From: Escherichia coli
GTDB taxonomy: Bacteria; Pseudomonadota; Gammaproteobacteria; Enterobacterales; Enterobacteriaceae
Reading direction: 5' to 3' (one strand)
Assembly: GCF_013122565.1 (NCBI RefSeq)
Contig: NZ_CP053258.1
Length of the DNA: 64,000 nt
This document shows positions 7,386-44,813 of this stretch, piece by piece (within the stretch, counting starts at the first letter, position 1; every line of letters begins with the position of its first letter). A program made the position numbers and the translations under genes. The notes beneath the pieces are model-generated. The model was not told the origin of the DNA. It made no database searches and saw nothing but the letters and a program-made list of their open reading frames with translations.

Positions 7386-7522
7386 ACAAAATGCAACAAC
7401 TCTTAGGAGACAAGAGAATAGTTCTCTCAGGTGTGCTTATCTATCTTATTGAAATAAAATAAATTATGTTGGTAATTTGAGGTTGATGACAAACGAAACA
7501 TAACCTGATGCGATCTGTGTAT

Positions 7523-7552
7523 GCCGGATAGGGCGCTCGCGCCGCATCCGGC
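7523..7552. repeat. REP (repetitive extragenic palindrome) element
   Basis: GCCGGATAGGGCGCTCGCGCCGCATCCGGC-type palindrome between zinT and msrQ; approximate coordinates. Confidence 0.5.
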
Positions 7553-17799: not shown

Positions 17800-18250
17800 G
17801 GCCACCCGCAGCAAAAATATGCGCGCGATTGCCACGCGTGATACGGCGATTGAGAAGCGCCTCGCCAGTATGTTAACCGGGCAGGGCCTGGCGTTTCGCG
17901 TTCAGGACGCCAGTCTGCCCGGACGCCCGGATTTTGTCGTTGATGAATATCGCTGCGTGATATTTACCCACGGCTGCTTCTGGCACCATCATCACTGCTA
18001 TCTGTTTAAAGTGCCTGCGACTCGAACCGAGTTCTGGCTGGAGAAGATAGGTAAAAATGTTGAGCGAGATCGCCGCGATATCAGTCGCTTGCAGGAACTC
18101 GGCTGGCGCGTATTGATTGTCTGGGAGTGTGCATTACGTGGGCGCGAGAAGCTGACGGATGAAGCGCTTAGCGAGCGTCTGGAAGAGTGGATCTGCGGCG
18201 AAGGTGCCAGCGCGCAGATCGACACGCAGGGGATTCATTTACTCGCTTGA
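17780..18250 (+). CDS. vsr: Very-short-patch repair endonuclease Vsr (156 aa)
   Basis: ATG at 17780 inside the dcm 3' end, different frame; [28 protein letters not shown]... Confidence 0.9.
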
Positions 18251-19159
18251 TGCGTCCTGAATAACTGGCGCAACTACGGGTTTTGCCGGGAAGAGATATT
18301 TTCCCAACGTGACCAGTACCACCGCGAAGACAATTACGCCGAGCGCCAGCCATTCAATCTTCGACAGCGTTTCTCCGCCCAGTCCCGTACCCAGCAAGAC
18401 CGCGACCACCGGGTTAACGTAGGCGTAGCTGGTGGCGAGAGCCGGACTGACGTTGCGGATTAAATACATATAAGCGTTGATGGCGATAATCGAACCAAAC
18501 AGCGCCAGATAGCCGACCGCAAGGAAGCCTGAAAGGGAAGGGAGCGCCGTCAGTTTTTCACCCGCAATCATCGACGCGATCATTAACACCATGCCTGCCG
18601 CCAGCATCTCAATCGCACCCGCCATCATCCCTACAGGTAAGGTAATGCGCGAGCCATAAACCGAGCCAAACGCCCAGCTAATCGAGCCGATTAAAATCAG
18701 AATCGCGCCCCACGGATTGCCGCTTAAATTTCCACCGCTATTGAGCATGATGATTCCGGCAAGCCCAATGGCGATACCCACCCATTCCAGTTTGCGCGTT
18801 TTAATGCCAAACAGGCGGCTGAAGCACAGGGTAAAGAGGGGCACGGTTGCAACCACAACGGCGGCGATGCCGGAAGGAACATTTTGATGTTCGGCAACCG
18901 TCACCATGCCATTACCGACAGCCAGCAATAACAGGCCAATCAGCGCGGCATTGAGCAGCGGACGTAGCGGGGGGAGCTTGTGTCCGCGTAGTAGCAAAAA
19001 TGCCAGCAATAAAATACCGGCTGCCAGGAATCGAACGCCCGCCATCATTAACGGAGGCCAGCTTTCCACGCCAATCCGAATGACAAAATAGGTTGAGCCC
19101 CAAATGATATACAACGCAAACAGCGCGCCAAAAAGCGGTAACAACTGGCGGAAACGCAT
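18239..19159 (-). CDS. yedA: EamA/DMT-family transporter YedA
   Basis: 306-aa hydrophobic ORF MRFRQLLPLFGALFALYIIWGSTYF... Confidence 0.88.
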   Translation of the reverse strand: MRFRQLLPLFGALFALYIIWGSTYFVIRIGVESWPPLMMAGVRFLAAGILLLAFLLLRGHKLPPLRPLLNAALIGLLLLAVGNGMVTVAEHQNVPSGIAAVVVATVPLFTLCFSRLFGIKTRKLEWVGIAIGLAGIIMLNSGGNLSGNPWGAILILIGSISWAFGSVYGSRITLPVGMMAGAIEMLAAGMVLMIASMIAGEKLTALPSLSGFLAVGYLALFGSIIAINAYMYLIRNVSPALATSYAYVNPVVAVLLGTGLGGETLSKIEWLALGVIVFAVVLVTLGKYLFPAKPVVAPVIQDASSE

Positions 19160-19331: not shown

Positions 19332-20249
19332 ATGCTTTTGGCCGGGAGTAGTTTACTGACGTTGCTCGATGATATCGCCACACTGCTGGACGATATCTCC
19401 GTGATGGGCAAACTGGCGGCGAAGAAAACCGCCGGTGTATTAGGGGATGACTTATCGCTCAATGCGCAACAAGTTTCAGGCGTGCGGGCCAACCGGGAAC
19501 TTCCCGTGGTCTGGGGCGTGGCGAAAGGATCGCTGATTAATAAAGTGATTCTGGTGCCGCTGGCGCTGATCATCAGTGCGTTTATCCCGTGGGCGATTAC
19601 GCCTCTGTTGATGATTGGTGGCGCGTTTCTCTGCTTTGAAGGGGTAGAGAAAGTGCTGCATATGCTGGAGGCGCGTAAACATAAAGAAGATCCGGCGCAG
19701 AGTCAGCAGCGTCTTGAGAAGCTGGCGGCGCAGGATCCGCTGAAGTTTGAAAAGGACAAAATAAAAGGGGCGATTCGTACCGATTTTATATTGTCTGCGG
19801 AAATCGTCGCCATCACGCTGGGGATTGTGGCCGAAGCGCCGTTGCTTAATCAGGTGCTGGTGCTTTCAGGCATCGCGCTGGTAGTGACCGTAGGCGTCTA
19901 CGGTCTGGTAGGGGTTATCGTTAAGATTGATGACCTGGGGTATTGGCTGGCGGAAAAATCCAGCACGCTGATGCAGGCATTAGGTAAAGGGTTATTGATC
20001 ATTGCGCCCTGGCTGATGAAAGCGTTATCGATTGTCGGCACGCTGGCGATGTTCCTCGTCGGCGGCGGGATTGTGGTACATGGTATTGCGCCGCTGCATC
20101 ACGCCATTGAACATTTCGCCGGGCAGCAAAGTGCAGTAGTGGCGATGATATTACCGACTGTTTTAAATCTGATTCTTGGATTTATCATCGGCGGCATTGT
20201 GGTGCTGGGAGTGAAAGCCGTAGCGAAAATACGCGGTCAGGCACATTAA
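19332..20249 (+). CDS. yedI: Inner membrane protein YedI (DUF808)
   Basis: 305-aa [36 protein letters not shown]... Confidence 0.88.
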
Positions 20250-20327
20250 TACTCGCACAGGCTATTATGCAAAATTCGCCATCTTCAACTAAGGTGAACA
20301 AGTTTCACTCGAAAAAAGGAGGCGAGT

Positions 20328-20510
20328 ATGAGCTTTATGGTTAGTGAGGAAGTTACGGTTAAAGAGGGCGGCCCGCGGATGATTGTCACTGGATACTCCA
20401 GCGGTATGGTTGAGTGTCGTTGGTATGACGGTTACGGGGTCAAGCGGGAAGCTTTTCATGAAACCGAGCTTGTTCCGGGGGAGGGGAGTCGTTCTGCGGA
20501 AGAAGTTTGA
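20328..20510 (+). CDS. yodC: Small protein YodC (60 aa)
   Basis: ORF with GGAGG RBS about 8 nt upstream of ATG; MSFMVSEEVTVKEGGPRMIVTGYSSGMVECRWYDGYG... Confidence 0.8.
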   Translation: MSFMVSEEVTVKEGGPRMIVTGYSSGMVECRWYDGYGVKREAFHETELVPGEGSRSAEEV

Positions 20511-20526
20511 AAGGGTATCATAAACA

Positions 20527-20715
20527 CCCGACCGGATGTGGTGCTCACGTCGCATCCGGTCGGGTGTGCCAGTGTTTGCACTGAATTGCCTGATGCGACG
20601 CTATCGCGTCTTATCATGCCTACGTTATAAAACTATCGAAGTCTGTCGCGTCTTATCATGCCACCATTATAAAATTATCGCTGTTTTGCGGTACGCTATC
20701 GCCAGGTTATGCCAG
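20527..20715. repeat. REP/BIME-like palindromic repeat cluster
   Basis: CCCGACCGGATG...CATCCGGTCGGG palindrome, then two degenerate copies of GCCTGATGCGACGC...CGCGTCTTATCATGCC; extragenic, between yodC and dgcQ. Confidence 0.5.
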
Positions 20716-20747
20716 AATCATAAAAAAGCAGGTGGGGAGTCGTCAGG

Positions 20748-23272
<2,525 letters not shown>

Positions 23273-23451: not shown

Positions 23452-23538
23452 AACACATCAGATTTCCTGGTGTAACGAATTTTTTAAGTGCTTCTTGCTT
23501 AAGCAAGTTTCATCCCGACCTCCTCAGGGTCGGGATTT
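23452..23538 (+). ncRNA. dsrA: DsrA small regulatory RNA
   Basis: 87-nt AACACATCAGATTTCCTGGTGTAACGAATTTTTTAAGTGCTTCTTGCTTAAGCAAGTTTCATCCCGACC(T)CCTCAGGGTCGGGATTT, with terminal hairpin and U-run. Confidence 0.9.
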
Positions 23539-44663: not shown

Positions 44664-44707
44664 TCGTCGTAACCTGATTAACTGAGACTGACGGCAACGC
44701 CAAATTG

Positions 44708-44813
<106 letters not shown>

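Follow-up and report, generated by a model that had tools for sequence, protein, structure and literature searches.

A partly decayed Y/Z2 BIME in the yodC 3' untranslated region of Escherichia coli

The repeats between yodC and dgcQ in Escherichia coli are a BIME (a REP cluster) of approximately 1.5 units, partly decayed and of the Y/Z2 type, and they lie in the 3' untranslated region of yodC. The element is an ordinary representative of a repeat family that is very well known. On balance, it was considered probable that it descends from a Y/Z2 BIME that entered the spacer within Escherichia, and that its first hairpin serves the 3' end of yodC as a stabiliser or attenuator.

The window, i.e., the whole stretch of 64,000 nucleotides that was analysed, is E. 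coli chromosome. The yodC–dgcQ spacer occupies 237 nt (20511–20747). It is preceded by yodC (20328–20510, plus strand, 60 aa), which was delimited by the ORF list and by the RefSeq annotation of near-identical genomes, and followed by dgcQ (20748–22442, plus strand), delimited by the same annotation. On the 5' side of yodC lies yedI (19332–20249), with yedA (18239–19159, minus strand, from annotation and the ORF list) beyond it, while yedP (22439–23254, minus strand) is the 3' neighbour of dgcQ. The dsrA sRNA gene (23452–23538, plus strand) was identified by Rfam RF00014 with 100.2 bits over the full model, and adjoins yedP as in K-12. A small open reading frame of 83 aa that crosses the spacer (20536–20787) was rejected, since its frame is shifted by 13-nt and 54-nt indels between alleles.

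The spacer contains, in order, a Y-derived hairpin, a linker, a Z2 REP, a linker, a headless Z2 REP and a further linker. The first of these, hereafter hairpin A (20524–20567, plus strand), begins 13 nt downstream of the yodC stop codon (TGA, 20508–20510); it was recognised as derived from a Y-type REP by its inverted repeat, its fold, orthologous Y REPs, covariation, and the 5' hairpin of the Rfam naRNA4 model. The head-side linker GCCAGTGTTTGCACTGAATT (20568–20587) lies between the GCC(G/T)GATG or 'head' sides of the two REPs, and was delimited through alignment of the alleles and the Rfam alignment. The near-canonical Z2 REP GCCTGATGCGACGCTATCGCGTCTTATCATGCCTAC (20588–20623, minus strand) is followed by the first copy of the tail-side BIME linker, GTTATAAAACTATCGAAGT (20624–20642), then by the 3' half only of another Z2 REP, CTGTCGCGTCTTATCATGCCACC (20643–20665, minus strand), and the second copy of the tail-side linker, ATTATAAAATTATCG (20666–20680). 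Both linker copies are part of a direct repeat, and the headless Z2 REP was recognised through this repeat and through alignments. The remainder (20681–20747, plus strand) is a block proximal to the dgcQ promoter and nearly invariant across Escherichia. A Y-derived hairpin and a Z2 REP in inverse orientation across a 20-nt linker constitute a BIME. The A/T-rich sequence TTATAAAAnTATCG, present twice, is the linker that comes after Z2, at its CTAC end.

An earlier note on this DNA had described the repeats as extragenic REP-like palindromes, which was borne out by the Z2 consensus, the Rfam alignment, the copy number and the sister species. The clean palindrome that it reported is real and slightly larger than claimed, with perfect 15-nt arms at 20524–20538 and 20553–20567. 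The strings it described as shared were also recovered, CGCGTCTTATCATGCC at 20605–20620 and 20647–20662, and TTATAAAA-n-TATCG at 20625–20638 and 20667–20680. It was mistaken, however, in taking these for two decayed copies of the first palindrome; they belong to Z2, the other REP type, in the opposite orientation. The first (20588–20623) is an almost intact palindrome; the second is without its 5' half and cannot fold. Of the interval 20527–20715 assigned to the repeats, the last part (20681–20715) is mostly a block that is conserved 5' of dgcQ in genera without REPs here.

As RNA, hairpin A forms a 20-bp stem, counting G-U pairs, at -37.3 kcal/mol (z = -5.7), and none of 200 shuffled sequences folded as well. 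Its stability of -37 to -42 kcal/mol compares with -19.5 kcal/mol for a canonical Y REP. Owing to the G-U pairs, the yodC-sense strand is 7–10 kcal/mol more stable than the antisense strand. The hairpin carries the Y core CCGGAT...TCACG.CGCATCCGG in the orientation opposite to Z2, and its orthologues in three other Escherichia loci (L007, L008 and L010) are canonical Y REPs. The REPs of E. coli are defined by a flanking GTAG, which is essential for TnpA-REP, and by an AA-GC mismatch bulge (PMC8266576). In hairpin A the GTAG tag is gone; ACAC/CCGA are found instead, with CCGA where the second unit of L008 and L010 has GTAG. The AA/GC bulge is closed, as AA has become GT to give a G-C and a U-G pair (columns 19–34 and 20–33 of the hairpin alignment). 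Hairpin A looks immobilised because the tag has been lost and the bulge closed, each of which abolishes TnpA-REP activity (PMC8266576). The spacer departs from known TnpA-REP substrates in that hairpin A is without GTAG and has a fully paired stem, and in that the third element is only half a REP. The E. coli TnpA-REP (RAYT) gene itself lies elsewhere on the chromosome.

The pairing of hairpin A was maintained in an alignment of 13 sequences, where 89.8% of cells were paired and six pairs had changed on both sides. The pairing score was reached by none of 500 shuffles, while controls in which the alignment was slid paired at 30–39%. The set is small and its members related, and the covariation was regarded as supportive rather than conclusive. 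The symmetry of a palindrome can also persist without selection, when mutation is templated or when other REP copies act as donors in conversion.

Comparison with the REP/BIME consensus, which the earlier note had suggested, gave 33 of 36 matching positions for the Z2 REP at 20588–20623 (E = 5.6e-9 by blastn-short), and this was supported by alignment with the 3' hairpin of the naRNA4 model. The copy folds at -14.8 kcal/mol (z = -4.2) and keeps its tag (CTAC at 20620–20623 on the plus strand, i.e., GTAG on the minus), its bulge (GAT-GC-GACGC / GCGTC-TT-ATC on the plus strand) and the expected length. A mismatch in its lower stem, CATGCC rather than CAGGCC, is common to the full-length Escherichia orthologues except L004, which has TATGCC. 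The intact Z2 REP is absent from K-12. The headless Z2 aligned with full-length orthologues in L004 and L005, and with K-12, where the sole Z2 remnant of the K-12-type allele is this same element (20643–20665). Its tag is mutated (CACC for CTAC) and it forms no hairpin (z = +0.9 for the fold of 20640–20720). Among the linkers, the first tail-side copy also follows Z2 in L005, L007, L008 and L010, and the second is identical in both E. coli alleles; the head-side linker (20568–20587) is strongly diverged between the alleles, and is unpaired in the Rfam alignment, where it has a 13-nt insertion.

The 117-nt unit at 20524–20640 had at least 40 similar places per genome (median) in 5425 of 5426 complete E. 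coli genomes, the figure of at least 40 being reached in 4237 records. The naRNA4 model (RF02564) aligned end to end with 20530–20620 as Y hairpin, linker and Z2 hairpin, scoring 39.7 bits (E = 6.5e-6 on a stretch of 281 nt) and falling short of the gathering threshold of 59.5 bits. The element is a relative of naRNA4 through the shared REP unit, and not a member of that family. REP325/naRNA4, between yjdM and yjdN in K-12, has the same building block of Y hairpin, linker and Z2 hairpin, and its setting is likewise the 3' UTR of the first of two co-directional genes. In contrast with REP325, the yodC element has a linker that is 13 nt longer, 1.5 units rather than many, and a Y hairpin without the GTAG tag and bulge; moreover, the role of REP325 as terminator and stabiliser is experimental, whereas that of the yodC–dgcQ element is putative. 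With the y, z1 and z2 REPs of E. coli (PMC8266576), the Z2 copy shares its GTAG tag, AA/GC bulge and length, and with E. coli BIMEs in general the element shares the inverse Y/Z2 orientation, a variable linker and high-copy dispersal.

Two further REP loci were observed in the window. The fliC 3' UTR contains a BIME (44707–44805) in which a Z1 REP (44707–44735, 28/29 to consensus) and a Y REP (44772–44805, 33/34) lie tail to tail with a 36-nt linker between them; its K-12 counterpart (2001968–2002067) falls inside the annotated sRNA FliX in the fliC 3' UTR. This is likewise a REP pair in a 3' UTR, and it shows that REP-containing 3' UTRs can yield stable RNA species, but it differs in being a canonical Z1-Y pair, tail to tail, between convergent genes. 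No sRNA is known from the yodC 3' UTR. The RefSeq table for K-12 has no REP features even at the fliC BIME, so it is uninformative for yodC–dgcQ. The other locus (7504–7552) comprised a Y-type REP on the minus strand (7523–7552, 27/30), preceded by an isolated Z-type head, CCTGATGCGA (7504–7513).

When one genome per species was scanned with YodC, 80 loci were obtained and the order yodC then dgcQ was widely conserved. Canonical Y and Z2 REPs occupied the orthologous site in all six of the other Escherichia species-level genomes, which include E. albertii, E. whittamii, two Escherichia sp. and two deposited as E. coli (L007 and L008). One Y–Z2 unit was present in L004 to L007 and two tandem units in L008 and L010, the Y REPs of whose second unit bear the GTAG tag; across Escherichia, unit number ranged from approximately 0.7 to 2. 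There was no REP at this site in Citrobacter, Salmonella, Enterobacter, Kosakonia, Trabulsiella and others, where a classical terminator of the form AACGCCCGG-loop-CCGGGCGTTTT directly follows yodC. A strict pattern of GC hairpin plus T-run was matched at 39 of 74 loci outside Escherichia (more by eye) and at none of the six Escherichia loci; within Escherichia, TGTTTT followed the hairpin only in L005 and L007. Hairpin A occupies the position of this ancestral yodC intrinsic terminator. The two are GC-rich hairpins in the same place, the outgroup one being similarly stable or less so (-23 to -25 kcal/mol), but a U-tract is present in the outgroup terminator, which does not resemble REPs, whereas the E. 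coli hairpin is without a U-tract and belongs to a dispersed repeat family. These comparisons indicate that the terminator was replaced within the Escherichia lineage by a REP unit, which was then duplicated and eroded. In the Citrobacter freundii complex, nine YodC homologues (L023, L024, L028–L030, L033, L042, L045 and L052) were not followed by dgcQ and shared a downstream sequence, CTCTCAACCATTAGTTATATTTATCATTTTGGTGAGAATTAT, at about 1683–1760; these are probably a paralogue in a different context.

Within E. coli, the spacer exists as two alleles. The long allele of the window was found in 1215 of 5363 complete genomes with the locus (approximately 23%, with at least 80% of the query matched); ATCC 8739 is one strain that has it. 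A second allele, shorter by 67 nt, was found in 29 of 31 lower-ranked rows of an evenly spaced sample and, separately, in K-12 MG1655, and most of the remaining E. coli genomes carry it. The short allele is without 13 nt of the hairpin top and without 54 nt containing the intact Z2 REP and first linker. A full two-unit form was found in none of 5426 E. coli genomes. The hairpin has 20 bp in the long allele against 14 bp in the short, and a perfect stem is kept in both through two compensatory pair swaps, the arms being CCAGGCCGG/CCGGCCTGG in K-12, CCAGACCGG/CCGGTCTGG in L004 and CCCGACCGG/CCGGTCGGG in the window. Divergence between the alleles was approximately 13 in 95 alignable positions (about 14%) in the hairpin and linker part, as opposed to 1 in 100 (about 1%) in the promoter-proximal part. 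The K-12-type linker (CCAATGCCTGCAATGAAT) is similar to that of L008, and the window-type linker (CCAGTGTTTGCACTGAAT) to those of L004 and L010; such resemblances hint at old haplotypes or exchange between lineages.

In the outbreak-lineage genome E. coli O104:H4 FDAARGOS_348 (L003, 1782–3384), dgcQ is a RefSeq pseudogene with an internal stop and the spacer is the short allele. In E. coli AST205 (L091, 748–1540), a rare structural variant of the yodC–dgcQ locus, an IS1A lies directly upstream of dgcQ; yodC through part of hchA is missing, and dgcQ is left without its native upstream region and the repeats.

The role that appears most likely for the element is that of a stabiliser and partial terminator at the yodC 3' end. 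Under this explanation, a Y-Z2 unit would have entered the spacer in the Escherichia lineage, at the point where other Enterobacteriaceae keep an intrinsic terminator, and would have been duplicated in some lineages before deletions gave rise to the 1.5-unit allele of the window and the shorter K-12-type allele. The part under constraint would be the first hairpin, which, as yodC-sense RNA, would form the 3' end structure of yodC transcripts. There it may block 3'-to-5' exonucleases and so stabilise yodC mRNA, and it may attenuate read-through into dgcQ, which it would insulate as a partial terminator. The other parts of the array (Z2 copy, headless Z2 and linkers) would be passengers or remnants upstream of the dgcQ core promoter. 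Position argues for this reading, in that a hairpin 13 nt after the yodC stop, where a terminator stood ancestrally, suggests a role at the yodC 3' end rather than at dgcQ, while the better folding of the yodC-sense strand fits a role at the RNA level in yodC transcripts. Hairpin A is not followed by a U-tract, the next sequence being GCCAGTGTTTGC, and is not an intrinsic terminator by that criterion; a consensus scan of 20250–20850 also produced no terminator-like site. Any termination at hairpin A is therefore not classical. As the hairpin of the K-12-type allele is much shorter, the additional stability seen in the long allele is dispensable.

Experimental precedent exists in REP325, which in the tandem pair yjdM-yjdN is both a partially Rho-dependent terminator and a stabiliser of the upstream mRNA, and REP-containing tandem gene pairs show upstream-biased expression genome-wide (bioRxiv 10.64898/2026.03.23.713779). 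The same study found that REPs do not uniformly lengthen mRNA half-lives, which counts against a stabilising role. No entry for yodC was present in the supplements of that preprint, nor in the supplement mapping 3' ends in K-12 (eLife 2021, PMC7815308, file 2); the latter does record an RNA 3' end internal to dgcQ, at K-12 position 2027287 (minus strand), the equivalent of which lies near 21478 in the window.

A purely neutral origin was judged doubtful, while deserving serious consideration. The repeats would then be decaying selfish or repetitive DNA, with the symmetry of hairpin A explained by its palindromic origin together with templated repair or conversion. Erosion is in progress, as seen in the headless Z2 half and the presence/absence polymorphism of 67 nt, and the variable unit number and very high local divergence of the alleles described above agree with a neutral remnant, as do reports that the effects of REPs depend on context and are often absent. 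Nevertheless, a strong hairpin was present in every Escherichia genome sampled, exactly at the position of the outgroup terminator, and the stem in E. coli has lengthened and lost its bulge instead of decaying. Nor does symmetry repair at the DNA level predict G-U pairs that favour the yodC-sense strand.

Roles for REPs at the level of DNA or translation are compatible with action at the yodC 3' end, and were thought improbable here. In the first form, the Y-Z2 pair would be a DNA gyrase site of the BIME-2 type, relieving supercoiling between co-directional genes; in the second, a hairpin within 15 nt of the stop codon would stall terminating ribosomes and lower YodC synthesis through tmRNA. 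Gyrase binding and stop-proximal stalling have reportedly been described for REPs, by Espeli and Boccard in 1997 and by Liang, Rudd and Deutscher in 2015 respectively. In its Y/Z2 composition and inverse orientation the pair matches the kind of BIME that is said to bind gyrase, but the K-12-type allele has lost the Z2 partner, so that most E. coli do not conserve a gyrase-type BIME. The base of hairpin A, 13 nt after TGA, suits the stalling form, and both gyrase binding and stalling are putative at this locus. Structural, transcriptional and post-transcriptional roles are all listed for REP/BIME in the review text of PMC8266576.

The repeats might instead act on dgcQ, either as a part of its 5' UTR that shapes the mRNA 5' end or by modulating its promoter; this too was rated as having little chance of being correct. 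On the 5' side of dgcQ, Escherichia, Citrobacter and Salmonella share a single conserved element, TATG(C/T)CAG(A/G)AT, which occurs 29–33 nt before the start codon (77 nt in Salmonella). Its version in the window, TGcCAGAAT at 20710–20718, is a putative extended -10 of dgcQ and lies downstream of all the repeats; it is followed by a Shine-Dalgarno sequence (GGGGAG, 20734–20739) and the GTG start at 20748. The earlier note had proposed that the repeats may influence the 5' end of dgcQ mRNA, and with a conserved candidate -10 in this position such a direct effect seems unlikely, since the repeats would be outside the transcript of the dgcQ promoter and would enter a dgcQ transcript only via read-through from yodC. 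For promoter modulation, it can be said that 67 nt separate the repeats from the start codon and that, if the -10 is rightly placed (20713–20718), linker copy 2 (20666–20680) would stand at about -59 to -45, where UP-elements are positioned. The linker TTATAAAAnTATCG could then behave like an UP element, and its additional copy in the long allele, given that the alleles differ upstream of linker copy 2, could alter the upstream geometry. However, the promoter-proximal 107 nt before the start codon, linker copy 2 included, are the same in both alleles bar position 20733, which leaves the polymorphism beyond about -60, and Salmonella and Citrobacter express their dgcQ homologues with no REP here. 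A consensus sigma-70 scan of the spacer produced no promoter-like site at threshold on the plus strand, which also counts against such an effect. On the minus strand, there was a match at 20746..20717 (CTGACG-18-TATGAT, 9/12), pointing back into the repeats; as a match to the consensus, it marks a putative promoter at most. A third REP copy at 20686–20715 was considered and appears unlikely: 20686–20702 (TGCGGTACGCTATCGC) resembles a Z2 head weakly (a score of 21, which 1 in 1000 shuffles also attained), and the block is conserved in genera without REPs. This stretch was treated as dgcQ promoter region, possibly an ancient remnant. No paper was found that names both yodC and dgcQ/yedQ.

The 38-nt direct repeat that underlies the Z2 copies (20601–20638 and 20643–20680) has 33 of 38 positions identical at a spacing of 42 nt, while the best 38-nt window in 1000 dinucleotide-preserving shuffles of the spacer reached at most 25 matches. 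That it belongs to a degenerate CRISPR array or another system of regularly spaced repeats is refuted and was accorded a negligible probability, in agreement with the earlier note: the resemblance is a superficial one of repeated palindrome-containing units and nothing more, there are only two copies, 4 nt apart and without spacers, Tandem Repeats Finder detected no tandem periodicity in the spacer, the neighbours (yedA, yedI, yodC, dgcQ and yedP) include no cas genes, and the repeat family is dispersed over at least 40 places per genome.

Taken alone, the locus carries little weight, as REP/BIME are the commonest repeats of E. coli and this is a decayed example. It is of mild interest for the replacement of a terminator by a REP and for the polymorphism of two alleles. 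It is conceivable, though rather unlikely, that the REP was co-opted as the yodC 3' end and insulator and that the two old alleles set different levels of read-through into dgcQ. If so, strains would differ heritably in the regulation of c-di-GMP, cellulose and the phage N4 receptor, and such differences would arise without any change to promoter or protein. The yodC–dgcQ pair is also a natural experiment, since it is associated, according to lineage, with a classical terminator, with canonical REP units, or with one of two REP-derived alleles. This makes it a convenient locus for testing the model of REPs as dual terminators and stabilisers, and it could show whether REP turnover tunes a diguanylate cyclase in the control of cellulose and the phage N4 receptor.
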